IMG/VR virus record: IMGVR_UViG_3300045988_070840
Strand: one strand, 5' to 3'
Source of the DNA: a virus
DNA length: 16,540 nt
A model generated the notes under the pieces. That model made no database searches. It was not told the DNA's origin and worked only from the letters and a program-made list of their open reading frames with translations. Position numbers and translations under genes: made by a program. Positions 74 through 16,540 of this stretch are shown here, one piece after another. The first letter of the stretch is position 1. The number at the start of each line of letters is the position of its first letter.

Positions 74-253
74 CTATTTATACTTGCAATGAATATAATA
101 CAGGACGCATATACCGCATACTACTATTAATGTTGGGTTGCTCGCGATTGCATCAATAATCGCGGCTATTATTTGTATAGCTGTAGTAAAGAAGTCTCCT
201 AACGTGTTAGCGATGTTATATACAGCTGTGTGAAGTTGTTCCGTGGTGGTCAT
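74..253 (-). CDS. Small hydrophobic (membrane) protein, 59 aa, not in the ORF track
   Basis: The minus-strand ATG is at 253..251, preceded by AAAGGAAA 6 nt upstream. Translation is MTTTEQLHTAVYNIANTLGDFFTTAIQIIAAIIDAIASNPTLIVVCGICVLYYIHCKYK, with two hydrophobic stretches. The stop TAG (76..74) abuts the ITR. A perfect consensus promoter lies upstream. Confidence 0.6.
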   Translation of the reverse strand: MTTTEQLHTAVYNIANTLGDFFTTAIQIIAAIIDAIASNPTLIVVCGICVLYYIHCKYK

Positions 254-271
254 GTCATTTCCTTTCGTTTG

Positions 272-391
272 GTGTACCTTGATTATAGATTAGTAGTGTA
301 CCGCTGTCAACTGTCAATCTTGCGCAAGTGAAAAATAATACTATATGTAGGAATTATGAAGGTACACGGCCATACTTGCAATCAGGTACAC
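272..391. promoter_or_regulatory. Four (A)GGTACAC boxes arranged symmetrically in the divergent promoter region (candidate operators)
   Basis: GTGTACC occurs at 272..278 and 296..302. GGTACAC occurs at 361..367 and 385..391. The outer and inner pairs are both centred on 331/332. One box sits inside the -35/-10 spacer of each divergent promoter. Confidence 0.5.
282..310 (-). promoter_or_regulatory. Leftward sigma-70/sigma-A type promoter, perfect consensus
   Basis: On the minus strand: TTGACA (310..305), a 17-nt spacer, then TATAAT (287..282). A second TTGACA lies at 317..312, one base further upstream. It drives the 74..253 ORF. Confidence 0.75.
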
Positions 392-2865: not shown

Positions 2866-4578
2866 ATGGATTACGTAGCAGATTTCGAGACGACCACAGA
2901 TGTAAATGATTGTCGCGTTTGGGCGTGGTGTGTTTGTGAGATTGATAACCCCGACGCACTAAGCTGTGGAACGAACATTGCAACATTTCTTGATTTCTGC
3001 AAGGTGCATGGCGGTACATATTATTTCCACAACGCTGCTTTTGACTGTGAGTTTATTCTGTGCTACCTGCTTACCAACGGATTTGAGTACAGTGAGAAGG
3101 CAAAAACAAAGACGTTCAAAACGCTTATATCTAGCATGGGCAAGTTCTATCAGATGCAAGTATGCTTTGAGAAGAAGGGTAAGAAGAAGGCTATTACCTG
3201 CACATTCAAAGACAGCTTGAAAAAACTCCCCATGAAGGTATCGCAGATTGCAAAGGCTTTCGACCTCCCCATATCCAAGTTGGAGATTGACTATACGGAG
3301 TACCGCCCCATAGGTCACGAGTTGACACCGCAGGAACGAGACTACATCAGGAACGATGTTCAGATTGTCGCACAGGCATTGCGCCAACAGTTCGGCAAGG
3401 GACTTACGAGATTGACAATTGGAAGCGACGCGCTCAACGGGTACAAGGACATAATCGGTTCAAAGTGGGATGATTGGTTCCCAAAAATTCATATCGAAAT
3501 GGATGCGATGATACGCAAAGCGTATCGTGGCGGGTATACCTATGCGAACCCTATCTATCAATCCGATGCAGACCATGAGGACAGATTGCAGGGCAGTGGT
3601 TCAGTATATGATGTGAACAGTCTGTACCCCGATGTTATGTACCATCGCCCCTTGCCGATAGGGCATCCAATTTATTTCAAAGGGTGCTATAAGGACAATC
3701 CCCAATATCCCCTTTATATCCAATTCCTAACATGCCATTGCAAGTTGAAACCAAACCACCTCCCCACATTGCAGATAAAGAACAACCCATTTTATTCGGA
3801 GACGGAGTATATACATGACACGGAGGGCACCGTTGACTTGGCTTTGACCAACATTGATTTGGAAATACTCATGCAGCAGTATGATGTTACGGTTTTCTCT
3901 TATAACGGCGGTTACATGTTTGAGCAGGCTACGGGACTGTTCAAAGAGTACATTGATTATTGGATGCACATAAAGGAGACAACCACAGGCGGTTTGAGAC
4001 AGCTTGCAAAGCTAATGCTCAACTCGCTTTACGGGAAGTTCGCAACCAACCCCGACGTTACGCCGAAGATTCCGTATCTGAAAGATGATGGAAGCGTGGG
4101 TTACAGATTGGGGGACAAAGAGACACGTGACCCTGTTTACACACCTATGGGGTGCTTCATTACTGCATGGGCAAGACATAAGACCATAACCGCCGCACAA
4201 AGCGTGTATGATAGGTTCATGTATGCGGACACTGATAGCATACATGTTTTGGGTACTGAACCAGTACAGGGAATTGAAGTCCATCCTACGCACCTTGGTG
4301 CTTGGAAACACGAGAGCAATTTCAGCATGGCTAAATATATCAGGGCTAAAACGTACATGGAAAGAATCTATCAGGTTGGCAAGATGGTTGATGGCGAATA
4401 CAGAATGGTTGACGTTCAGCCGTTCGATGACGTTAAGTGCGCAGGTATGCCAGAGGAATTGAAGCGCATGGTTACGTTCGACAGTTTCAAAAGGGGCTTG
4501 CAACTTCATGGGAAGTTGAAGCCAAGGCACGTTAGGGGCGGCATAGTGCTTGAGCCTATAACGTTCACGCTCACCTGA
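2866..4578 (+). CDS. Protein-primed family-B DNA polymerase (phi29 gp2-like, 570 aa)
   Basis: Exo I is DFETT, Exo II is HNAAFDCEF and Exo III is YIRNDV. Motif A is YDVNSLYP, motif B is KLMLNSLYGKF, motif C is YADTDS, and a KxY motif (RAKTY) is present. Confidence 0.97.
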   Translation: MDYVADFETTTDVNDCRVWAWCVCEIDNPDALSCGTNIATFLDFCKVHGGTYYFHNAAFDCEFILCYLLTNGFEYSEKAKTKTFKTLISSMGKFYQMQVCFEKKGKKKAITCTFKDSLKKLPMKVSQIAKAFDLPISKLEIDYTEYRPIGHELTPQERDYIRNDVQIVAQALRQQFGKGLTRLTIGSDALNGYKDIIGSKWDDWFPKIHIEMDAMIRKAYRGGYTYANPIYQSDADHEDRLQGSGSVYDVNSLYPDVMYHRPLPIGHPIYFKGCYKDNPQYPLYIQFLTCHCKLKPNHLPTLQIKNNPFYSETEYIHDTEGTVDLALTNIDLEILMQQYDVTVFSYNGGYMFEQATGLFKEYIDYWMHIKETTTGGLRQLAKLMLNSLYGKFATNPDVTPKIPYLKDDGSVGYRLGDKETRDPVYTPMGCFITAWARHKTITAAQSVYDRFMYADTDSIHVLGTEPVQGIEVHPTHLGAWKHESNFSMAKYIRAKTYMERIYQVGKMVDGEYRMVDVQPFDDVKCAGMPEELKRMVTFDSFKRGLQLHGKLKPRHVRGGIVLEPITFTLT

Positions 4579-4591
4579 TAGGAGGTAACAT

Positions 4592-4759
4592 ATGATTGAG
4601 CGTAGCTTTAGGATTGATGAAGTGATGTACGAGCAGCTTAAAGAAATAAGCGAGCGAGAGAATCTACCCGTTTCCTATCTTGTTCGCGTTGCGATTTCGC
4701 AGTTTTTGAACGCCTATTCCGATTCGATTGATTTGGTGAAAATGAACGCGAGTGCTTGA
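4592..4759 (+). CDS. Ribbon-helix-helix (CopG/Arc/MetJ-type) transcriptional regulator, 55 aa, not in the ORF track
   Basis: The RBS is GGAGGT, 6 nt before the ATG at 4592. Translation is MIERSFRIDEVMYEQLKEISERENLPVSYLVRVAISQFLNAYSDSIDLVKMNASA. It shows a beta-strand (RSFRID), helix A, a turn (LPVS) and helix B, which is the RHH signature. The stop TGA (4757..4759) lies inside the first AGTGCTTGAC repeat. Confidence 0.75.
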   Translation: MIERSFRIDEVMYEQLKEISERENLPVSYLVRVAISQFLNAYSDSIDLVKMNASA

Positions 4760-4778
4760 CAGTGCTTGACAGTGCTTG
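4751..4778 (+). repeat. Three direct AGTGCTTG repeats at exact 10-bp phasing (candidate operator array)
   Basis: AGTGCTTGAC AGTGCTTGAC AGTGCTTGTG occupies 4751..4780. Copies 1 and 2 each contain a TTGACA. A fourth AGTGCTTGA lies at 4544..4552, about 40 nt upstream of the RHH start. Confidence 0.8.
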
Positions 4779-4794
4779 TGAAGTGACATATATT
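4766..4794 (+). promoter_or_regulatory. Late-operon promoter
   Basis: TTGACA (4766..4771), a 17-nt spacer, then TATATT (4789..4794). A duplicate TTGACA sits 10 bp upstream at 4756..4761. Confidence 0.7.
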
Positions 4795-4800
4795 GGCTAT

Positions 4801-4968
4801 GGTGATACCCAATCCGTCTGGACGATGACCGATGCGGGGTTGCTACGGGTGATACCGCCCGCACGAGTGCGAGCCGCATTAGCAGCGGCGGCGTTTCGGG
4901 AATGGCAATATCACCAGCACAGTCAGCCCTTGCCACGGTCACAACCAGATGGCGGGGGCTATTTTGTT
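4801..4968 (+). ncRNA. Candidate structured non-coding RNA or leader (pRNA-like candidate)
   Basis: About 168 nt lie between the predicted start of the 4766..4794 promoter and a terminator-like hairpin. The hairpin pairs 4925..4935 with 4950..4960 (11 bp including 2 G.U) and is followed by ATTTTGTT. There is no RBS-preceded ORF. Self-complementary segments are dense: GGTGATACC occurs twice (4801, 4848) and can pair with TATCACC (4909..4915), and GCCGC-ATTAGCA-GCGGC lies at 4873..4889. Confidence 0.35.
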
Positions 4969-4981
4969 GAAAGGAGAAGGA

Positions 4982-5335
4982 ATGAACCTAGAGGAGTTGC
5001 TTGCATGGATTAGCGAGCGCATGGAGGCTAGTGAGTACGCCACCGCAGAGACGCTATTGAAGGACATGGAGAAGCGGGCTGCCGACTTTGACGAGTACCG
5101 CAGTTCTTCGGAAGCGCGAATGAGCGAGTACGCAGCTAACGAGGAAGAGATGAAGTCAGAGATTCAGTCCCTTAAAGCCCGCAATTATGACCTGCTGATG
5201 CAGGTACCTGCCGACAACAGCGGGGACAATGATGGTGACGGTGCGGTTGTTGAGGACGTTGACGATGATGGAACAGTGTACCACATCGACAGTCTTTTCA
5301 CCGATGATAAGGAGGATGGAAACAATGGCAATTAA
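4982..5335 (+). CDS. Scaffolding protein (phi29 gp7-like role, 117 aa)
   Basis: The ATG at 4982 follows GAAAGGAGAAGG. The protein is small, very acidic and predicted helical/coiled-coil. It lies directly upstream of the capsid gene and overlaps it by 11 nt. Confidence 0.65.
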   Translation: MNLEELLAWISERMEASEYATAETLLKDMEKRAADFDEYRSSSEARMSEYAANEEEMKSEIQSLKARNYDLLMQVPADNSGDNDGDGAVVEDVDDDGTVYHIDSLFTDDKEDGNNGN

Positions 5336-6770
5336 GACGGTTAAAACCCTGAACGCGACGAACGCAGAGATTTTGAACGCGATTCGCACTGATGCTTCGT
5401 TCGCGTATCAGCAGCGAATCCCTGCCGCCACGCAGGGAGACATTACCGACACGGTGAACAACCTGCTTGAATATCGCCCGATGATGAATGAGTTTATCGA
5501 CGCGCTTGTGAACCGAATCGGCGACGTGGTTATCAAGAGCAAGGTTTGGACTAACCCGCTTGCGCAATTCAAGCGTGGAATGATGCAGTACGGTGAGACT
5601 ATCGAGGAACTTGCAACCACGTTGCTGCAAGCCAAGCGTTATGACCCTAACAAGTCCTATGATGATGTGTTCGCTTGCAATCCGCCCGATGTTATGAGCA
5701 ATTTTCATAGCATCAACCGTCAGGATTTTTATGAGCTTACCATTAAAGATGTGCTTCTGCGTCGTGCTTTCCTTACCGATTATGGTCTGCAAGACCTCGT
5801 TGGGCGCATCATGGAAACGCCGTACACGTCTGATTATTGGGACGAATACTTGATTATGCGCAACCTGTTTGCGACGTACGCGAGCATCGATGGATTCTAC
5901 AAGGTGCAGGTGCCCGACGCTTCAGCAGCGTCCACCCGTTCGCAGAAGCAGGATGACGCGATGGCAATAACGGAAGCCGTGCGCTCGATGGCTGGAAAGA
6001 TGCGCTTCCTTTCTGGTCAGTACAACGCCGCTGGTGTTCCCACGTTCACGAAAAATGATGAACTTGTTCTGTTTGCCACGCCCGAATTTGTGGCGATGCT
6101 TGACGTGAACGTTATCGCGTTCGCGTTCAACGCATCCGCAGCAGATTTAAAGATGCGAGTTGTCGAAATTGACGATTTCGGAATTGACGGCTGCCAAGCC
6201 ATTCTGTGTGACCGAGGTTTCTTCATGTGTGCGGACACGCTGATTGACTTTGAGAGCATCCGCAACCCGAAGGCGATTTCGTGGAACTATTGGCTGCATC
6301 ACCACGGGATTTACTCTGTGTCCCGATTCGTTAATGCCGTTATGTTCACTACGGAAGCAGGTACTAGTGTAAGTGTCCCTGCCATTGAGGCAACTGGTGT
6401 TACGCTTGATTATGCGGTGGTTGACGGAGTGAAACCCGCTTACGCAGAGCGCGGTGGAAAGACGCGCCTTATCGCCACTGTTAATGGCACCGTAACGCCC
6501 AAGACGGAGGGGTACACGGTTCCGCAGGGCTGCACGTTCGCAATCACCGCGAACAACACGGGTGTTAATAGCGGCGGCGTTCGGTTGAAGCTGGGCACGT
6601 TCGTGGATGCCGAGGGCGTGCTGCACGTAGCCGAGGATGAAGTTGCGGAGAACGTGACTGTTACCGCGACCAGCACCTATATCAACCCGACGGTTTCGAT
6701 GGGCGAGCAGGAGTACAAGCACAATGGTTTGATTATCGGCATTGACAAGGCGTACACGCCCGCAGGTTAA
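5325..6770 (+). CDS. Major capsid protein (phi29 gp8-like, 481 aa) with a C-terminal Ig-like domain
   Basis: The ATG at 5325 follows AAGGAGGA. N-terminal segments (NAIR, LVNRIGDVVIKSKVWTNPLAQFKRGMMQYGETIEE) parallel phi29 gp8 as I remember it (NAIR, LVDRIGLVVIRQ..NNPLKKFKKG..GRTIEE). The C-terminal ~100 aa is beta-rich, as in the gp8 BIG2-like domain. Confidence 0.9.
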   Translation: MAIKTVKTLNATNAEILNAIRTDASFAYQQRIPAATQGDITDTVNNLLEYRPMMNEFIDALVNRIGDVVIKSKVWTNPLAQFKRGMMQYGETIEELATTLLQAKRYDPNKSYDDVFACNPPDVMSNFHSINRQDFYELTIKDVLLRRAFLTDYGLQDLVGRIMETPYTSDYWDEYLIMRNLFATYASIDGFYKVQVPDASAASTRSQKQDDAMAITEAVRSMAGKMRFLSGQYNAAGVPTFTKNDELVLFATPEFVAMLDVNVIAFAFNASAADLKMRVVEIDDFGIDGCQAILCDRGFFMCADTLIDFESIRNPKAISWNYWLHHHGIYSVSRFVNAVMFTTEAGTSVSVPAIEATGVTLDYAVVDGVKPAYAERGGKTRLIATVNGTVTPKTEGYTVPQGCTFAITANNTGVNSGGVRLKLGTFVDAEGVLHVAEDEVAENVTVTATSTYINPTVSMGEQEYKHNGLIIGIDKAYTPAG

Positions 6771-6780
6771 GGAGTATGAC

Positions 6781-8952
6781 ATGGCACAAGATTTCCCTGG
6801 GTTGCCAGAGAACATCTATGAATATGAGAACAGGTTTAATTATTCGGTATGGACACCGAACACTACCATTCTCATGTGCAACGTGCCGTGGGATTCTTCG
6901 TATCGCGATGTGGTGCGCTTTGATTCCGACAAGGAGCGGGATGCTTATTTTGCATCCCGCACATCCGATGGCTATGCGTTCACGCTTAATGGGCTTGTAT
7001 ATCTGCGATATGGTGAGCCTGTTCGCGTGAACGCGCCATTTGATATGGTTACACGTTGCAACTACATGGTTGTTAAGAACTCTATGCAGCCTATATCGCC
7101 AACAGAGGGCAGACAGCCCGATGTATTCTATTATTTCATTAACGACGCAAAGTATCTTGCGCCGAACACTACGCAGGTAAATGTGCAGCTTGACGTGTGG
7201 ATGACCTATTACGGCAGAATCAACTTCAACCTCTGCTATGTGAACAAGGGGCACATAGGCATCGCCAACGAGAACAGCACTATCGACAACTTATCGGACT
7301 ACTTGACCGACGCCGAGGGATTGAACATAGGAGACGAGTACGAGATTGCAGACATTGCAATCGACAACTTTCTCAACGAGCCGCCGTACATCGTCCTCAT
7401 GTGCACGGCTGATTTGACGGCGGGATTCGGCACAGTGTCCAACCCGACGCTCAAGACGGCTACAGGCTCGATAAACGACGGCATGCCATCTGGCTCTGCG
7501 GTGTACGCTTGCAACAGCGAGAACTTCCTCGCTCTGATGGGGAAGCTGCAAGATGCGCCCTGGGTCTCGCAGTGCATCAGCATGGTGACGGTTGTGCCAG
7601 CCCGATTCGTGCAGAACGCGACGAATACGACGGTAGCGGGCATAGATATGCTCACCATGCCCGACAACCCTGCTGAGAACATCAGGTCGCTGGACGTTCC
7701 GAACGTAATGGGCATGTTCCATATTCCAGAGCGCTACAGGAATCTCTTGAAATTCTACACGTCGCCGTATTGCGTGATAGAGATGACGGGGTACAACGGC
7801 GGAGAAGTCGTGATGAAGCCCGAATGCTTGGAACTTGACAATGACGGTGGGATTTCAATCCTCACCAACACGGTCGTCGCGCCGCCTGATATCCGCGCCT
7901 ACTCTTACGTTGCGGGCTACAATACGGCGAACGGCGTCGGCGGCAGCGTCGATGCGGACTACTATCTTCCGAGCGGGGGAGACCCGTTCCCTCATTCGGA
8001 GTACAACGAGGAGGGGCTGGACATTGCGGTTCAGTTCAGCAACTTTCCGCAGTTTTCGCTTGTGAACAATCAGTACATATACTATTTGGCGTCGAACAGG
8101 AACAGGCTCGCGTACCAGTTCGCCGCTGCGGACTGGTCGCAGCAGAAGTCGCTCACGGCGGCGCAGCTCTCGTTCAACCAGAGCGGCGCGAACATGCAGA
8201 ACGCTTGGGCGAACCAGCAGGTCGCGAACCAGGCGAACTGGGCTTTGAGCGGCATCTCGCAGGAGAAGAACCTGTGGAGCGGGGCTACGTCCATGGCATC
8301 GTCCGGGGTGGGCGCTTTGGGAGCCGGTTTGTCTGGAAACGCAGGCGGTGCGGCGGCGGGCGTCGCCAACATGGCTCTTGCAGGTGCGAACACCGCGCTG
8401 AACGCCGACTGGATTAACAGGACTACCGCGACGCAGGTGGGAGCGGCTACCGCAACCACGCAGAACAACATCGGCTTGCAGGGATACATCAGGGACACGA
8501 ACTACGATTACGCAGTGTACGCCGCGAACGGGGATTACGAGACTGCCATACAAGGCATACAGGCGAAGGTTCAGGATGCGCGGCTCACGCAGCCGTCCAC
8601 CTCTGGGCAGAACGGCGGCGACGCGTTCAACTTCTGCAAGGGCTACATGGGAGTGCGTTTGAAGTTCAAGCGGCTGAAGCCGAACTTCATGCGCCAAGTC
8701 GGCGACTTCTGGCTGCGGTACGGATACTACGTGAACCGCTGGATTGTCCCGCCCGCCGACTTGAAGTGCATGGAGAACTTCACGTACTGGAAGATGCAGA
8801 GCGTCTCTCTTGACTCTAGCGAGGTTCCCGAGCTGTTCAAGGAGAGCATCAGGGGCATTTTTGAGAAGGGCGTGACAGTTTGGAACGACCCTGATAAGAT
8901 GTACAAGGTTGATTTAGCGGACAACGAGCCTGTGAAGGGAGTGCGTTACTGA
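6781..8952 (+). CDS. Tail knob / distal tube protein (phi29 gp9-like, 723 aa)
   Basis: The ATG at 6781 follows AAGGAG with a 6-nt spacer. The N-terminal region (ILMCNVPWDSSYRDVVRF ... FYYFINDAKYLAPNTTQVNVQLDVWMTY) parallels phi29 gp9 as I remember it ([20 protein letters not shown] ... [31 protein letters not shown]). Gene order matches phi29. Confidence 0.85.
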   Translation: MAQDFPGLPENIYEYENRFNYSVWTPNTTILMCNVPWDSSYRDVVRFDSDKERDAYFASRTSDGYAFTLNGLVYLRYGEPVRVNAPFDMVTRCNYMVVKNSMQPISPTEGRQPDVFYYFINDAKYLAPNTTQVNVQLDVWMTYYGRINFNLCYVNKGHIGIANENSTIDNLSDYLTDAEGLNIGDEYEIADIAIDNFLNEPPYIVLMCTADLTAGFGTVSNPTLKTATGSINDGMPSGSAVYACNSENFLALMGKLQDAPWVSQCISMVTVVPARFVQNATNTTVAGIDMLTMPDNPAENIRSLDVPNVMGMFHIPERYRNLLKFYTSPYCVIEMTGYNGGEVVMKPECLELDNDGGISILTNTVVAPPDIRAYSYVAGYNTANGVGGSVDADYYLPSGGDPFPHSEYNEEGLDIAVQFSNFPQFSLVNNQYIYYLASNRNRLAYQFAAADWSQQKSLTAAQLSFNQSGANMQNAWANQQVANQANWALSGISQEKNLWSGATSMASSGVGALGAGLSGNAGGAAAGVANMALAGANTALNADWINRTTATQVGAATATTQNNIGLQGYIRDTNYDYAVYAANGDYETAIQGIQAKVQDARLTQPSTSGQNGGDAFNFCKGYMGVRLKFKRLKPNFMRQVGDFWLRYGYYVNRWIVPPADLKCMENFTYWKMQSVSLDSSEVPELFKESIRGIFEKGVTVWNDPDKMYKVDLADNEPVKGVRY

Positions 8953-9851
8953 TGGGAAGGAACCGCAAGGGAAAGCGCAACACGTGGCAGTCGGCCGAGA
9001 TGAACAATCTTCAGTACCGCATGTACTACGAGCTGCTTGAGCAGATGGCTTGCGCGATATACCGATGGGAGGGCTTGCCAGCGGAGATTGACCAGCGATT
9101 CTTGGAGCTTACGCTTTTCAATCGCGGTATGAGCGTGTTTTTCTGGGATGACGAGTACGACGCTTATTTCTCAACTATGGGCGCGCCGTCTGGGCAGATT
9201 AACATGTACCAGAATCCGTTGGCGTACATTGCGTATGGCACAAATGGGTTTCATCGCCGCTTGAAGTCAACGGAATGTGTCCCGATATGGAACAACTACT
9301 TGCGCCGCCCCGACATTAACGCCATGCGCATATACGCGCGTCGCCTTGCAGACATTGACAGAACCGTGGACGTGAACCTTATGAGCCAGAAAATGCCAAT
9401 CTTTGCGGTTGTTCCTGAATCGCAGAGGTTGACCATTCAGAACCTTATGAAACAGTACGTGGGCAACGAGCCTATTATTGTTGGCGCTGATGGGATGTTC
9501 GACCCGTCGCAGATAACGTATCTCAATTCTGGTGCACCGTTCATCACGCCAGAGCTGCTCAAAGCCAAGCAGACCGTGTGGTCAGAGATAATGACGTACT
9601 TTGGAATCGAGAACACTAACATAAGCAAGGCAGAGCGAGTGCAGAGCGCAGAGGTGGAAGCGAACAATGGGCAGATTGAAGCGAACAGGCTTATCCGCCT
9701 TAATTGCAGACGGGAAGCGTGCAGGCAAATCAACCGTAAATACGGTCTTGAAGTTTGGTGCGACATGAACAAGGATGTTTCTACCGACAATATGAACACG
9801 CTTCTTATGGTTGACCCCGAGATTCAATCGGAAGGGGGCATGGGGCTATGA
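8952..9851 (+). CDS. Portal / head-tail connector (upper collar, phi29 gp10-like, 299 aa)
   Basis: The protein is collinear with phi29 gp10 as I remember it: a basic N-terminus (MGRNRKGKRN versus MARKRSN), YRWEGLP versus FEWENLP, TVWSEIMTYFGI.N versus AVWNEMMTFLGIKN, and REACRQINRKYGL versus REEACEKINELYGL. Confidence 0.95.
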   Translation: MGRNRKGKRNTWQSAEMNNLQYRMYYELLEQMACAIYRWEGLPAEIDQRFLELTLFNRGMSVFFWDDEYDAYFSTMGAPSGQINMYQNPLAYIAYGTNGFHRRLKSTECVPIWNNYLRRPDINAMRIYARRLADIDRTVDVNLMSQKMPIFAVVPESQRLTIQNLMKQYVGNEPIIVGADGMFDPSQITYLNSGAPFITPELLKAKQTVWSEIMTYFGIENTNISKAERVQSAEVEANNGQIEANRLIRLNCRREACRQINRKYGLEVWCDMNKDVSTDNMNTLLMVDPEIQSEGGMGL

Positions 9852-12073: not shown

Positions 12074-13345
12074 ATGCCCACAACCAGAGCCATATGCTAT
12101 TATGCGATGTACGTCATAGGCGAGGTGGAGTCCGAGTGGGACTGGACAGCCGTGTATTACAGCGACCCTATCACGATAGGCATGATGCAATGGTACGGTA
12201 CGCGGGCGGCAGCCCTCCTCAACCGTGTCAAGGACGAGACGCCGACTGCCTACGGGGGGTTGGCATCCTCGCTGCGCTCCGACCTCGAATCGCACGATGC
12301 GGGCAGCACGTGGTGGAACAGCAGGTACCTCAACAGGGACGAGGGAAACAGCATCATATCTGTTTTCCAAGAGGAAGAAAACCACGTCATTCAAGAGAAT
12401 CAGGCCATCGCAGACTTCGAGGGCTACATCTCGACGCTCGAAAGCTGGGGCATGAGCCAGTCCTACCCTAAGACGCTGATTTTCGCGATGAGCATGTACC
12501 ATCAATCACCAGCAAGCGCAGGACAGGTCATTGCAACGGCAGGTGGTAGTGCAGACCTCGATAGGATTCACACCGTTTGCATGAACCATGGAGTTCTTGG
12601 GCAGTACAGAAACCGTTACAATACCGTGTACCAGAGATTGAAGGATTGGGATGGCGAGAGTGCCCCGCCTGATTTTGGGCAGAGCGGGGACGTTGACACA
12701 ACGCCTGGGGGCAACGAGCAAGGTATCGGAACAGGTGCGAGCAAGCTGGGCTATATCATTCAGAACGGAGACATGCTTGTCCTTTACGGCAAGGACGAGT
12801 ACAAGAACGGCGTCATATTCTATCCCGCGTCTGGACAGGTCTGGGTAAACGGATACAACGCTGACGGAACTGATATTGGCGGCGGCAACGAAGGCGGCGG
12901 TTCTGAAACAGGAAGTGAAGCACAGAATGCGATATGCAATTTGTACCGTTCGTGGCTTGACAAGTTTGCGTATTCACAGGGCGCTGGACGGCTCGACCCC
13001 GTTAGCAGCGGTTACGGCGACTGCTCATCGACGATTTGGTTCGCGTACCAGCAGGTTGCGGGAATAGACGTGGGGACGTGGACGGGAGACATGGCCGACA
13101 AGGGGGAGAGGATAGCCAGCGGGAACTCTTCTGACAACCTTCCCATTGAGGACATGGAGCCAGCCGACCTGGTTCTTATCATGTGGCGCGGATGGAACCC
13201 GTCGTTCGACCACGTGGAGCTGTATATGGGGAACAACGAGCTGTGGGGGCACGGTGGACCAGACTACGGACCAGACCAGACCACGACGGATGCGAGGAGC
13301 TACCCACGGCGCATGTACTACTGGGAGGTGAGACGGTACCTATGA
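12074..13345 (+). CDS. Tail-associated peptidoglycan hydrolase (phi29 gp13 position): N-terminal tail-lysozyme-like domain plus C-terminal NlpC/P60 peptidase
   Basis: The N-terminus reads GEVESEWDW...ITIGMMQWYGTRAAALL, an E...GxxQW pattern of the tail-lysozyme fold. Gly-rich linkers are present (GGNEQGIGTG, GGGNEGGGSETGS). The C-terminus has YGDCSSTIW (catalytic Cys), PADLVLI and DHVELYMG (His), matching NlpC/P60. Confidence 0.8.
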   Translation: MPTTRAICYYAMYVIGEVESEWDWTAVYYSDPITIGMMQWYGTRAAALLNRVKDETPTAYGGLASSLRSDLESHDAGSTWWNSRYLNRDEGNSIISVFQEEENHVIQENQAIADFEGYISTLESWGMSQSYPKTLIFAMSMYHQSPASAGQVIATAGGSADLDRIHTVCMNHGVLGQYRNRYNTVYQRLKDWDGESAPPDFGQSGDVDTTPGGNEQGIGTGASKLGYIIQNGDMLVLYGKDEYKNGVIFYPASGQVWVNGYNADGTDIGGGNEGGGSETGSEAQNAICNLYRSWLDKFAYSQGAGRLDPVSSGYGDCSSTIWFAYQQVAGIDVGTWTGDMADKGERIASGNSSDNLPIEDMEPADLVLIMWRGWNPSFDHVELYMGNNELWGHGGPDYGPDQTTTDARSYPRRMYYWEVRRYL

Positions 13346-14367
13346 GCGAGAGCATGTACTACGATGCACACGATATCATGACGCGGAACGCCATGTTCAA
13401 CTTCGTCATCGGCGGGCGCGGAACGGGAAAGACGTATGACTTCAAGTACAAGCGGATAAGGCATTTCATCAAGACAGGCAAACAGTTCATCTACCTGCGC
13501 AGGTACAAGTCGGAGTTCGACGACAAGCAGGAGTTCTTTCAGGATATTGTTGACCGCTTTCCATCGTGGGAGTTCAAAGTTGAGGGAATGAAAGGATACA
13601 TCAGAAAGGTTGCAATAGGTGATGAAAAGCCAGAGAAATGGCGTGTGCTATGTTTCTTCATCACGTTGGCAAACGCGTTGACCAAAAAGTCTGTACCCTA
13701 TCCCGACGTTGATATGATAGGATTTGACGAGTTCATAATTGACAAGGGTTCGCTACACTACTTGCAAAACGAGTTGAAGCAGTTTCAAGACTTCTACAAC
13801 ACGGTTGACCGATTTCAGGACAGGGTTAAGGTAATGTTCATGGCTAACGCCGTCGCACTGACTAACCCATACTTCATCGGATGGAGATTGAAGCCGAGAA
13901 AGGGTAAGCGCTTTCTCATGGCACACAAAGGGTACATGTGTGTTGAGATTGTGCAGAGCGAAAATTTTAGGGCGCACGTTGACAAAACTAGGTTTGGCCA
14001 GATGATACGTGGAACGTCATACTACGATTATGCAGTTGGCAACATGTTCTATGATGACAACGACAAGTTCATTGCCAAGAAGTCGGAGGAAGCGAGATTC
14101 TATTTCGCACTCCGATTCGACAACAGGACGGTTGGCGTGTGGGTGGACTACACGGAAGGTGTGTACTACGTTTCACGCAGGTATCCGAAGGATGCGCTGG
14201 TTTACGTCTTGACGAAATCGGACATGCAGCCTAACCTGCTTATGATAGAGAAATCGAGCGTGGTGCTGCGGAGCGTGCGAAAGCTGTACATGCAGGGAAG
14301 CGTGTTCTTCGACACGATTGAAACGCGAGAGTTCTTCAACAACGTGTTCGACTATCTGGGATTCTAG
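13342..14367 (+). CDS. DNA encapsidation ATPase (phi29 gp16-like, 341 aa)
   Basis: An ATGA overlap links it to the upstream stop. Walker A is GGRGTGKT and Walker B is DMIGFDEF. The size is close to gp16 (332 aa). The start is the ATG at 13342, not the track start at 13183. Confidence 0.9.
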   Translation: MSESMYYDAHDIMTRNAMFNFVIGGRGTGKTYDFKYKRIRHFIKTGKQFIYLRRYKSEFDDKQEFFQDIVDRFPSWEFKVEGMKGYIRKVAIGDEKPEKWRVLCFFITLANALTKKSVPYPDVDMIGFDEFIIDKGSLHYLQNELKQFQDFYNTVDRFQDRVKVMFMANAVALTNPYFIGWRLKPRKGKRFLMAHKGYMCVEIVQSENFRAHVDKTRFGQMIRGTSYYDYAVGNMFYDDNDKFIAKKSEEARFYFALRFDNRTVGVWVDYTEGVYYVSRRYPKDALVYVLTKSDMQPNLLMIEKSSVVLRSVRKLYMQGSVFFDTIETREFFNNVFDYLGF

Positions 14368-16252: not shown

Positions 16253-16438
16253 ATGCTATCTGCACATGAGGATGTTAAGTACGAATACTGGTGCGACGGT
16301 GAACTTATCGTTTCGTTCACAGATAAGGACAAGGCTATAAACCACTACAAGAAACAGTGCAAACAGGCACCAACATCCTTACACACAATCTTCAAAGTTG
16401 TCCCTACCCGTAAAAACATTGTTCAATGGGTGCCGTAG
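16253..16438 (+). CDS. Hypothetical protein (61 aa; the start could instead be 16190)
   Basis: The ATG at 16253 has AAAGGTG 5 nt upstream. The alternative ATG at 16190 has a poorer RBS and overlaps the previous gene by 31 nt. The ORF ends 29 nt before the right ITR. Confidence 0.5.
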   Translation: MLSAHEDVKYEYWCDGELIVSFTDKDKAINHYKKQCKQAPTSLHTIFKVVPTRKNIVQWVP

Positions 16439-16467: not shown

Positions 16468-16540
16468 CGTCCCTCATGTACTCCCACGCTGTACAAGTTT
16501 ACGGCGCTGGGGAGGTACATGGGATTCGGGGGGCCATAGT
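16468..16540. repeat. Right inverted terminal repeat (73 bp, perfect)
   Basis: It is the exact reverse complement of 1..73. Confidence 0.97.

Follow-up and report, generated by a model that had tools for sequence, protein, structure and literature searches.

A conserved structured RNA in the late-operon leader of phi29-like phages resembles the phi29 packaging RNA in layout

Results

The late-operon leader of a phi29-like phage

We analysed a stretch of 16,540 nucleotides of viral DNA (IMG/VR record IMGVR_UViG_3300045988_070840), which is called the window in the following. It holds the complete 16.5-kb genome of a phi29-like phage with terminal repeats, a protein-primed type B polymerase and a phi29-type capsid protein (Pfam Phi29_MCP, 7.7e-109). 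The genes and signals to be considered are:

4592..4759, + strand: 55-aa ribbon-helix-helix (Arc/CopG-like) gene (PHROG 3180 Arc-like repressor, 1.2e-10; Pfam RHH_1, 4.5e-6)
4766..4794, + strand: putative sigma-70-type promoter, TTGACA (4766-4771), 17-nt spacer, TATATT (4789-4794)
4970-4976, + strand: ribosome-binding site AAAGGAG, read from the sequence
4982 (ATG) through 5335, + strand: putative scaffold gene, by gene assignment the first late gene
8952..9851, + strand: phi29-type connector of the gp10 family (Pfam Phage_connector, 3.3e-56; PHROG upper collar connector, 4.5e-70)
13342..14367, + strand: phi29-type packaging ATPase of the gp16 family (Pfam Podovirus_Gp16, 3.9e-73)

The gp16-like ATPase and the portal that the initial annotation had named were thus both recovered by profile searches. 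The ATPase match spans profile positions 1-326 of 331, with the C-terminal domain included, and makes ATG 13342 the probable start of this gene. For the connector, the initial annotation had taken the basic N-terminus (MGRNRKGKRN) as a sign of RNA binding; this marker was dropped, since it is inconsistent among phages that carry the RNA described below.

Between the ribbon-helix-helix gene and the scaffold gene lies a gap of 222 nt (4760-4981), the longest intergenic non-coding stretch among the assignable genes. The upstream stop codon is located 6 nt 5' of the -35 hexamer, and the promoter, which agrees with the consensus hexamers at 11 of 12 positions, is the best + strand match of the window. 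From its position the RNA is predicted to start at G4801, 7 nt past the -10 hexamer. A hairpin and a U tract end 12 nt ahead of the scaffold ATG. Positions 4801-4969 hold a non-coding, folded RNA of ~165-169 nt, which extends from the promoter up to and including a terminator-like hairpin. Between 4969 and 8872 no second promoter-like site was seen on the + strand, so that transcription can reach the scaffold gene solely through the hairpin.

The sequence features listed by the initial annotation are all present where it had placed them: GGTGATACC at 4801-4809 with a second copy at 4848-4856, TATCACC at 4909-4915, CCGCC at 4855-4859, GGCGG at 4887-4891 and GCCGC-ATTAGCA-GCGGC at 4873-4889. The same applies to the long non-coding stretch after a consensus promoter and to the 11-bp hairpin before the scaffold ribosome-binding site. 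From these features a structured non-coding RNA of about 168 nt had been proposed, a length and character with which the fold described next agrees.

A four-way-junction RNA fold backed by covariation

The structure was derived by comparison with related phages. A raw MAFFT alignment with RNAalifold recovered it only partly and misaligned P4 and the 3' hairpin, which is why hand-seeded covariance models (R1 to R3) were used instead. Domain I comprises 115 nt, in which the paired 5' and 3' ends (helix A) and three hairpin arms meet in a four-way junction. A linker and a 3' domain follow:

4801..4815, + strand: 5' strand of helix A (pairs 4801-07/4909-15, 4809-11/4903-05 and 4813-15/4899-4901)
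4816..4829, + strand: short hairpin P2 (pairs 4816-18/4827-29; 82-93% of cells paired, 3 pairs double-changed)
4830..4865, + strand: arm P3 (pairs 4830-31/4864-65 and 4834-38/4858-62)
4839-4845, + strand: bulge GUUGCUA on the 5' side of P3, opposite strand empty
4846-48/4855-57, + strand: distal 3-bp helix of P3, closing the hexaloop GUGAUA (4849-4854)
4869..4894, + strand: arm P4 (outer pairs 4869-71/4892-94, inner stem 4873-77/4885-89, loop AUUAGCA 4878-4884)
4841-4845/4880-4884, + strand: complementary bulge UGCUA and loop UAGCA, candidate kissing or pseudoknot contact
4916..4924, + strand: single-stranded linker AGCACAGUC, 9 nt, joining domain I to the 3' hairpin
4925..4969, + strand: 3' domain, hairpin 4925-4960 (11 + 3 bp) followed by AUUUUGUUG (4961-4969)

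Across the relatives 89-94% of the cells of this structure are paired, compared to 30-41% in slid controls, and double (compensatory) changes occur in 36-38 of the 39 proposed base pairs. The covariation check suggested by the initial annotation thus turned out in favour of a structured RNA. In helix A compensatory changes were found for all 13 pairs, with variants such as GGUGGCA/UGCCAC in lineage L019 and GGUGGUU/AACCACC in L026. The stem of P2 varies between 3 and 5 bp among relatives. Helices 4, 5 and 7 of the model, which belong to P3, are 95-100% paired and carry double changes at each pair, and the inner stem of P4 is fully covarying (for example GAACC/GGUUC in L030 and CGAUU/AAUCG in L018).

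Of the pairings proposed initially, the stem 4873-4877/4885-4889 is supported as part of P4. Both copies of GGTGATACC had been considered as partners for TATCACC; the first copy does form this helix (4801-4807/4909-4915, within helix A), while the pairing of the second is not conserved. The suggested pairing of CCGCC with GGCGG found no support, the bases being part of P3 and P4. Folding of the window sequence by itself yielded a minimum free energy of -74.4 kcal/mol (z = -2.2) as opposed to -64.8 kcal/mol for the conserved fold. This single-sequence fold, which uses the second GGUGAUACC copy as well as long-range pairs, is not conserved and was rejected.

Bulge-loop complementarity

The P3 bulge and the P4 loop are complementary over 3 to 7 bases in all 25 lineages compared, in line with the loop complementarity that the initial annotation had proposed to look for. 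In fixed alignment columns 81-88% of the cells pair, compared to 16-60% when slid, and four of the five pairs show double changes. The covariance model does not include this contact. Compensatory variants of bulge and loop include UGCUA/UAGCA, UGCCA/UGGCA, UGUUG/UAACA, GCAA/UUGC and ACUG/UAGU. Such a pairing may connect neighbouring RNA molecules; it could equally be an intramolecular pseudoknot.

Linker and 3' hairpin

The 3' hairpin (4925-4935/4950-4960) has 9 Watson-Crick pairs and 2 G-U pairs. It continues inward with 4937-4939/4944-4946, and its calculated energy is -23.3 kcal/mol. With AUUUUGUUG behind it, the hairpin resembles an intrinsic terminator. A GC-rich hairpin occupies the same place in 18/18 lineages examined, and most of them also have the U tract, which is weak or absent in L018, L025, L035 and L084. 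As read from sequences and folds, an unpaired linker of roughly 4-16 nt precedes the hairpin in these 18 lineages.

In most of the 18 lineages the predicted ensembles give high probabilities to helix A as well as to the hairpin. No antiterminator-like pairing of the hairpin with the 3' strand of helix A is conserved; a 6-nt match in the window (4903-4908/4930-4935) needs U4931, a base unique to the window. Since domain I and the hairpin coexist in this way, a switch between alternative pairings is not indicated.

Distribution and conservation

Searches with the covariance models found the element in ~40 related phi29-like genomes, among them Curtobacterium phage Pize, Arthrobacter phage Tillums and Rhizobium phage RHph_N3_8. 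These three are cultured phages. The carrier hosts comprise Actinobacteria, Rhizobium and unknown gut bacteria, and the carriers have no common metabolic gene context. In every carrier genome examined the element lies on the same strand as, and directly 5' of, the scaffold and capsid genes, and the gene order polymerase, ribbon-helix-helix gene, element, scaffold, capsid protein is conserved in relatives. In L017, L030, L018, L024 and L028 the -35 and -10 hexamers place the transcription start on the first base of helix A as well, which matches the expectation for a primary transcript. No recognisable promoter for the element was seen in the distant relatives Pize, Tillums, L082 and L107 nor in high-GC relatives; in the first four genomes the element starts at the stop codon of the preceding gene.

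Among relatives that share 68-89% identity in the neighbouring genes, domain I reaches 97-100%. The element is the best conserved DNA of its neighbourhood, with a constraint above that of the surrounding genes. Given this identity, the excess of paired cells over slid controls and the double changes at nearly all pairs, the element is a real, conserved, structured non-coding RNA, far beyond chance.

A motif scan of IMG/VR with TGCYMYGGGTGAWACCRCC together with the model searches located the complete RNA only in phi29-like contigs. Nine further matches to TGCYMYGGGTGAWACCRCC outside this set were discarded as chance, since the 19-mer alone matches. In the related phages Av-1, PineapplePizza, Voltaire and BadAargau2 the covariance-model search detected no copy. 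When the whole window was compared with GenBank phages by megablast, the only match was one of 120 bp to an unannotated gut phage. Rfam gave no family match at the gathering threshold across the whole window, and permissive scans (E up to 10) of positions 4500-5300 and 1-480 and of nine relatives produced only noise. The RNA family is missing from Rfam 15.

A 62-aa reading frame from ATG 4825, whose conservation the initial annotation had regarded as an argument against a packaging RNA, is open in the window and its nearest relatives. Comparison with further relatives refuted coding: in L005 a frameshift follows the fifth codon, in L030 and L016 only 8 codons are left, and the ATG is missing in L018, L022, L024, L025, L026 and L028. 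The frame also has no ribosome-binding site and overlaps the scaffold start, and we consider a small protein gene practically negligible as an explanation of the locus.

As stated initially, no other non-coding RNA candidate for packaging was found in the genome parts checked. A left-end gene placed as for phi29 pRNA was rejected, since the minus-strand transcript from a perfect promoter (310..282) carries a ribosome-binding site and a 59-aa ORF. This ORF is conserved as a protein down to 32-35% identity.

Comparison with phi29 pRNA

To our knowledge, pRNA is the sole RNA known as an essential component of a viral DNA-packaging motor. The same reduced ATPase that it serves is present in many other phages. 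The phi29 ATPase gets to the prohead through pRNA only (10.1101/2020.07.06.188573; PMC5066667), and recent reviews still regard pRNA as a peculiarity of phi29 and related Bacillus phages (PMC11476376, PMC12670572).

Like phi29, the phage in the window encodes both a gp10 connector and a gp16 ATPase, and the RNA follows the phi29 pRNA element by element. Domain I has 115 nt compared to 117 nt in phi29, its ends being closed by an A helix in both; the linker has 9 nt compared to 13 nt (PMC5066667); and the 3' domain is a terminator hairpin with U run in both, domain II of phi29 consisting of a hairpin plus a 3' UUUU. The total length is 166-169 nt here and 174 nt for phi29 pRNA. The order of the arms is also the same, a bulged arm being followed by a hairpin arm; the loop of the latter and the bulge are complementary over 3-5 bases and covary. 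P3 corresponds in layout to helices C and E of phi29 with the CE bulge and the E loop, and has a distal helix of 3-4 bp and an empty strand opposite the bulge. Its 6-nt loop is GUGAUA in the window, whereas distant relatives have UUGAAU and phi29 has UUGAGU (PMC5066667). The P4 loop takes the place of the phi29 D loop and pairs with the CE-type bulge; in known pRNAs two loops pair via 3-4 covarying bases (PMC12670572).

There are also clear differences. Because of the additional covarying hairpin P2, the junction is four-way here rather than the three-way junction (A, C, D) that defines known pRNAs. The phi29 pRNA gene lies at the genome end and is transcribed from an early promoter in the direction away from the late genes, whereas the element is located mid-genome, in the late-operon leader and co-directional with it, a difference in location that the initial annotation had pointed out. 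Moreover, its carriers infect hosts outside Bacillus.

At the level of sequence models no significant match was obtained in either direction, neither with the Rfam pRNA model against the window and nine relatives, a check proposed initially, nor with our own models against phi29 pRNA. With filters off, model R2 ranked domain I of phi29 pRNA first in the left 600 bp of phi29, a weak match (7 bits, E 0.14) whose alignment, though weak, is full length and in register. Model R3 with filters off found nothing significant in phi29, Cp-1, Av-1, Voltaire or BadAargau2. The initial proposal of a pRNA-like identity is partly supported, by the order of the elements; the mismatch to Rfam and the four-way junction speak against it.

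Discussion

We consider a packaging RNA of the pRNA type to be the best reading of the element, with about an even chance of being correct. RNA polymerase would initiate at G4801 from the promoter at 4766-4794. Some transcripts would stop at the hairpin and provide a discrete RNA of ~165 nt, while the remaining ones would read through and serve as late mRNA, encoding scaffold, capsid, tail, connector and ATPase. As counterpart of phi29 pRNA, the released RNA would then join with further copies head to tail via bulge-to-loop pairing into a ring that sits on the connector of an empty prohead. The outward-facing helix A would dock the gp16-type ATPase, itself presumably unable to bind the prohead alone, and the RNA would depart once the DNA is packaged. 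With the RNA gene in the late-operon leader, RNA synthesis would be coupled to the synthesis of head proteins. In its full form the proposal is a first packaging RNA beyond the Bacillus phi29 group: a four-way-junction pRNA of a broad phi29-like clade (Actinobacteria, Rhizobium and human-gut phages), made as a terminated late-operon leader in which the proportion of motor RNA to head protein would be determined by one promoter and one leaky terminator. We hold this more tentatively, at slightly below an even chance.

Against the packaging-RNA reading stand the lack of a significant match to known pRNAs, the four-way junction, a position resembling that of a cis-regulator and the distant relatives with no recognisable promoter, as well as the related phages with no detectable copy, the unconserved basic N-terminus of the connector and the possibility of an intramolecular pseudoknot.

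The main rival is a cis-acting antitermination leader, which we judge to be rather unlikely, yet the most serious alternative; the initial annotation had itself named an attenuator or antitermination element as the other possibility. Domain I would act on its own polymerase or bind a phage or host factor and thereby allow passage of the hairpin at 4925-4969, comparable to processive antitermination by put RNA of HK022 or by the EAR element of Bacillus, with the bulge-loop contact as an intramolecular pseudoknot. The order promoter, structured RNA, terminator-like hairpin and first late gene, kept in all ~40 genomes, fits such a leader, as do the lack of another promoter ahead of the scaffold and capsid genes and the regulator of the ribbon-helix-helix type that is always encoded directly upstream. 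In Av-1, too, a strong terminator follows a promoter and a short leader at this place, from which a leader terminator seems general to the group. The known systems share with the element a structured RNA between promoter and a terminator that has to be passed for expression of the operon. The put RNAs are two simple stem-loops of ~70 nt, while EAR has several helices and a pseudoknot. Unlike in these systems, domain I persists here in lineages whose hairpin has no usable U tract. An unpaired linker separates domain I from the hairpin, both coexist in the predicted ensembles, and neither EAR nor any other Rfam leader matches. A cis-acting leader would furthermore leave the detailed likeness to pRNA unexplained and the phi29-type motor without its RNA. 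The lambda pR'-tR' region is comparable in that a late promoter yields a short terminated RNA of similar size with the late genes past the terminator. Its leader gives rise to a 194-nt '6S' transcript, which is not known as a conserved folded RNA, and read-through depends on Q loaded at the promoter; Pfam and PHROG profile searches found no Q-like gene in this genome.

Other roles for the RNA appear less probable still. As a 5' stability or processing element of the late mRNA, or as a trans-acting small RNA against host or phage transcripts, it would account for strong conservation, an abundant-looking RNA and its 5'-terminal location in the main late transcript. A simple stabiliser, however, would need neither 34 covarying pairs nor a covarying tertiary contact, and no conserved single-stranded seed stands out beyond the mutually pairing bulge and loop, such that we regard these roles as improbable. 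A ligand-sensing riboswitch, with domain I as aptamer and the 3' hairpin as expression platform, is highly improbable in our view. A multi-helix junction, a P1-like closing helix and a loop-bulge contact followed by a terminator are a common riboswitch layout; here, however, the closing helix and the terminator are not mutually exclusive, any alternative pairing between them is not conserved, no Rfam riboswitch matches, and the diverse hosts provide no shared metabolic context.

If the element is a packaging RNA, the range of pRNA architectures would widen to include a four-way junction and kissing pairs of 3 to 7 bases, and new self-assembling RNA scaffolds as well as a new coupling of motor-RNA supply to late transcription would become available. 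If it is instead a cis-acting antitermination element, it would represent a new family of phage late-gene regulators. With a conserved RNA family of pRNA layout in phi29-like phages outside Bacillus, whether the ATPases of such phages use RNA would become directly testable in the three cultured carriers.

Genome context and conservation of the element

The window is the complete linear genome (16,540 bp) of a phi29-like podovirus. Its inverted repeats are identical over the first and last 72 bases (1-72 / 16469-16540) and diverge beyond, which fits a complete protein-primed linear genome, and its gene set is that of a phi29-like podovirus. Nearly all genes lie on the + strand. In gene order the genome agrees with Actinomyces phage Av-1 and the small actinobacteriophages and departs from phi29 itself.

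Genes of the window
253..74, - strand: 59-aa hydrophobic ORF, good RBS
2048-2863: ORF, probable terminal protein gene, judged by its position ahead of the polymerase
2866-4578, + strand: type B protein-primed DNA polymerase
4592-4759, + strand: ribbon-helix-helix protein, 55 aa
4982-5335, + strand: putative scaffold protein
5352-6770, + strand: phi29-type major capsid protein
8952-9851, + strand: gp10-type connector
about 13342-14367, + strand: gp16-type packaging ATPase
no coordinates given: tail knob protein, lower collar protein, amidase

Within the early gene block a terminator-like hairpin (2009-2034, GGGCG-AAATGCC-CGCCC followed by TTTCTGTT) separates ORF 1550-1978 from ORF 2048-2863, within a gap of 69 nt.

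No stretch lacking an assignable gene is longer than the 222-nt gap 4760-4981. It holds the top-scoring + strand promoter match of the genome (TTGACA-17-TATATT, 4766-4794). The initial annotation had proposed a structured non-coding RNA at 4795-4981, and the sequence features it described were all found in place. The single-sequence fold of the stretch is only mildly unusual (z = -2.2) and the resulting structure is not conserved, such that the case rests on the comparison with relatives. These were collected via the capsid protein, which yielded 32 IMG/VR contigs (29-93% protein identity) and in a second round 49 further new loci (about 40-46% identity); individual contigs and genomes carry L numbers below. 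Throughout the relatives, polymerase and ribbon-helix-helix gene precede the gap, and scaffold and capsid follow it, in constant order. Domain I, the 5' part of the element (4801-4917), shows 97-100% DNA identity in contigs whose flanking genes (polymerase end, ribbon-helix-helix gene, scaffold and capsid, compared at DNA level) are at 68-89%. It is still recognisable (62-77%) where the scaffold gene is down to 38-72%. The 62-aa frame starting at ATG 4825, the coding alternative raised initially, was rejected as a gene since it is not maintained in relatives: it is shifted by a 1-nt insertion in L005, runs for only 8 codons in L030 and L016, and lacks its ATG in six other lineages. Judged by these comparisons, the stretch is non-coding and strongly selected.

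Conserved fold

The fold was derived from visible compensatory changes and then served as seed for a covariance model, which was rebuilt twice from its own hits (models R1-R3). RNA position 1 corresponds to window position 4801.

Parts of the conserved fold (RNA positions)
1-7/109-115, 9-11/103-105, 13-15/99-101: helix A
16-18/27-29: P2
30-31/64-65, 34-38/58-62, distal helix 46-48/55-57: P3, hexaloop GUGAUA
39-45: P3 bulge GUUGCUA, 7 nt, 5' side only
69-71/92-94, 73-77/85-89: P4, loop AUUAGCA at 78-84

For 25 and 24 distinct sequences, standard pairs were found in 93.7% and 89.4% of the cells (slid partners: 30-41%), both-sided changes in 36/39 and 38/39 pairs, and a covariation score of 0.68-0.74 compared to about 0.1 in controls, where the pairing and covariation figures are inflated because the alignments were fitted to the model. 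The slid controls, together with the many independent pair types (e.g. GC, CG, UA and AU at single positions), place the reality of helices A, P2, P3 and P4 beyond doubt on comparative grounds. Conservation and covariation in relatives thus confirm and strengthen the original observation of a structured RNA.

In the window clade the hexaloop GUGAUA makes GGGUGAUACC (4848-4856) repeat the 5' end of the RNA (4801-4809), and energy minimisation favours pairing of this second copy with 4909-4915 (-74.4 vs -64.8 kcal/mol). We rejected this alternative fold, which is not conserved because other lineages have GUGAAA or UUGAAU loops.

Part of the P3 bulge (UGCUA, 41-45) is complementary to the P4 loop (UAGCA, 80-84). 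This contact is absent from the covariance model and provides an independent test. Bulge and loop of the same RNA share 3 to 7 complementary bases in 25/25 lineages. In fixed alignment columns 81-88% of the cells pair, compared to 16-60% when slid. Double changes occur at 4/5 positions, which was matched by 5 out of 500 shuffles.

Bulge/loop variants
UGCCA/UGGCA: L026
UGCCA/UGGUA: L024
UGCC/GGCA: L025
CCC/GGG: L018 group
CGC/GCG: L028
GCAA/UUGC: phage Pize
ACUG/UAGU: L089
UGUUG/UAACA: Rhizobium phage RHph_N3_8

3' hairpin and promoter

Downstream of domain I, each of the 18 lineages examined has a GC-rich hairpin of at least 13 pairs, separated from it by a short unpaired linker. In most of these the hairpin leads into a U-rich tract and then, within a few bases, the scaffold RBS; L025, L084, the L018 group and Arthrobacter phage Tillums (L035) have a poor U tract. 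For most of the 18, high probabilities are predicted for both helix A and the hairpin in the same ensemble, such that the two domains are not in competition. Where sigma-70-like promoters are legible (window, L017, L030, L018, L024, L028), the -10 hexamer ends 5-8 nt ahead of the first base of helix A, which fits a primary transcript beginning with this helix. High-GC relatives have no recognisable promoter, and there the element begins at the preceding gene's stop codon.

Three tandem 10-bp units (G/C)AGTGCTTGA at 4750-4779 overlap the ribbon-helix-helix stop codon and the -35 hexamer. L008 and other close relatives have two units only; the 10-bp duplication in the window yields a second TTGACA at the wrong spacing and may be relevant to regulation by the adjacent ribbon-helix-helix protein. 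A U-for-C difference unique to the window, at 4931 within the 3' hairpin (5' arm), leaves a G-U in place of a G-C pair and gives rise to an antiterminator-like 6-nt match (UGGCAA, 4903-4908 / UUGCCA, 4930-4935). This candidate was dismissed, being absent from all relatives.

Comparison with phi29 pRNA

The 174-nt phi29 pRNA comprises domain I (1-117), a 13-base single-stranded linker and domain II (131-174), and its CE and D loops pair between molecules (PMC5066667). Part for part, the element follows this order at nearly equal sizes, with 115 nt for domain I and 9 nt for the linker. In the phi29 sequence the CE bulge is confined to the 5' side of its arm, the E helix measures 4 bp and the E loop reads UUGAGU. 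The bulged arm of the element similarly has a 7-nt bulge on the 5' side only, a 3-bp distal helix and a 6-nt loop (GUGAUA in the window, UUGAAU in distant relatives). The loop of its hairpin arm is complementary to the bulge, as is the phi29 D loop to CE. Loops of known pRNAs pair by 3-4 covarying bases (PMC12670572), and the element likewise shows covarying complementary loop bases. Domain II of phi29, a hairpin plus UUUU at the mapped 3' end, has the form of an intrinsic terminator; the 3' domain is a terminator hairpin in both RNAs. The element differs by the extra hairpin P2, giving a four-way junction, and by a shorter helix A.

With filters off, the top R2 hit among the left 600 bp of phi29 was pRNA domain I, with CE, E and D aligned in register with P3 and P4, at a weak score (7 bits, E 0.14). 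R3 found nothing significant on phi29, and the suggested scan with the Rfam pRNA model gave no match here. The likeness to pRNA is one of architecture; homology is not demonstrable.

Whereas the left end of phi29 holds the pRNA gene, the corresponding position of the window (74-310, minus strand) holds a conserved protein gene. A perfect promoter (TTGACA-17-TATAAT, 310..282, minus strand), preceded by tandem TTGACAGTTGACAG, drives the 59-aa ORF, whose membrane-like product is conserved among relatives down to 32-35% identity. The parts of the genome looked at, left end included, hold no other pRNA candidate.

Possible function

Given the phi29-type motor proteins and the lack of another candidate where we looked, the best-supported reading of our analysis is that the element would act as the counterpart of pRNA. 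In phi29 the ATPase gets to the prohead solely via RNA (10.1101/2020.07.06.188573). Transcripts would start at the promoter 4766-4794; some would stop at 4961-4969, giving an RNA of roughly 165 nt, while the remainder would read through into late mRNA. Lineages lacking the U tract would need to excise the RNA from a long transcript. The RNA would then form a ring and bind the prohead.

The main competing reading is an antitermination leader acting in cis on the late genes. It accounts for the hairpin and for the invariant position ahead of these genes, and is consistent with Av-1 (L033), where, at 4474-4611, the late genes are immediately preceded by a promoter, an approximately 60-nt leader and a strong terminator. 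The Av-1 terminator, at the syntenic position, reads GGTAGGCTAGGAAC-GTAA-GTTCCTAGCCTACC-TTTTT. Such a leader explains neither the pRNA-like design nor why domain I persists where the hairpin is no terminator. The two roles are compatible and not mutually exclusive. A riboswitch is unlikely, given the lack of alternative pairing and of an Rfam match and the diversity of hosts. The initially proposed pRNA reading is partly supported, with the shared architecture in its favour and the four-way junction and the missing Rfam match against it.

Distribution among phages

The covariance models matched the element at E-values from 1e-32 to about 0.1, always on the coding strand and 420-570 nt upstream of the capsid gene. 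Carriers are all close relatives and, further, L028, L071, L082, L091, L086, L090, L107, L084, L089, L094, L095, L067, L099, L078, L079 and L108. Three cultured phages carry it exactly within annotated intergenic gaps.

Copies in cultured phages
Curtobacterium phage Pize, 3938-4047: between gp04 and gp05
Arthrobacter phage Tillums, 5482-5585: just after the ribbon-helix-helix gene
Rhizobium phage RHph_N3_8, 5587-5693: between gp10 and gp11

The GenBank records of these three phages carry no annotation in the gap, and Rfam 15 has no family for this RNA. Reviews from 2016 (PMC5066667) and 2024 (PMC11476376) confine pRNA to Bacillus phages, and a 2025 survey treats it as Bacillus-phage only (PMC12670572). 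In a literature search that covered few subscription journals, we found nothing relevant on pRNA in Curtobacterium, Arthrobacter or Actinomyces phages and no description of this RNA; an earlier report is possible. The element represents an RNA family that is new and widespread in phi29-like phages, with pRNA architecture and a candidate function.

Model searches detected no copy in Av-1, PineapplePizza, Voltaire, BadAargau2, Cp-1 and phi29, nor in the first 1.2 kb of GA-1 and of B103. Searching IMG/VR with a degenerate P3 19-mer gave matches in nine unrelated contigs, 0/9 of which contain the whole RNA. At the syntenic position of Av-1, R3 gave a weak match (4452-4561, 10 bits). The 'packaging RNA' of the Av-1 GenBank record (16295-16402) lies at the right, i.e. 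opposite, genome end, overlaps ORFs B and C on the other strand and matches none of our models; this annotation is a guess.

By eye, Voltaire and BadAargau2 have a hairpin and a similar-sized domain at the same place.

Syntenic gaps
BadAargau2 (L119, Bifidobacterium phage), 13051-13229, - strand
Voltaire (L120, Glutamicibacter phage), 4769-4930

Both gaps measure about 160-180 nt and are closed off, ahead of the scaffold gene, by a strong hairpin. In BadAargau2 there is also a TATAAT box, and the 5' GAGCGAGGCGG could base-pair with CCGCCGCUC some 110 nt further on. The two gaps may be divergent members that escape the models. Streptococcus phage Cp-1 (L124) has a 220-nt gap ahead of its scaffold gene (4655-4875) without a covariance-model match; its mapped late transcription starts (4740 and 4835) imply a leader of at most 136 nt in the corresponding place. 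In Tillums the annotated start of gene 11 (ATG 5607) falls in the loop of the 3' hairpin following the element (region 5593-5670). The in-frame ATG 5670, with AAGGAG ahead, is the more likely start, and the annotated one is probably 63 nt too early.
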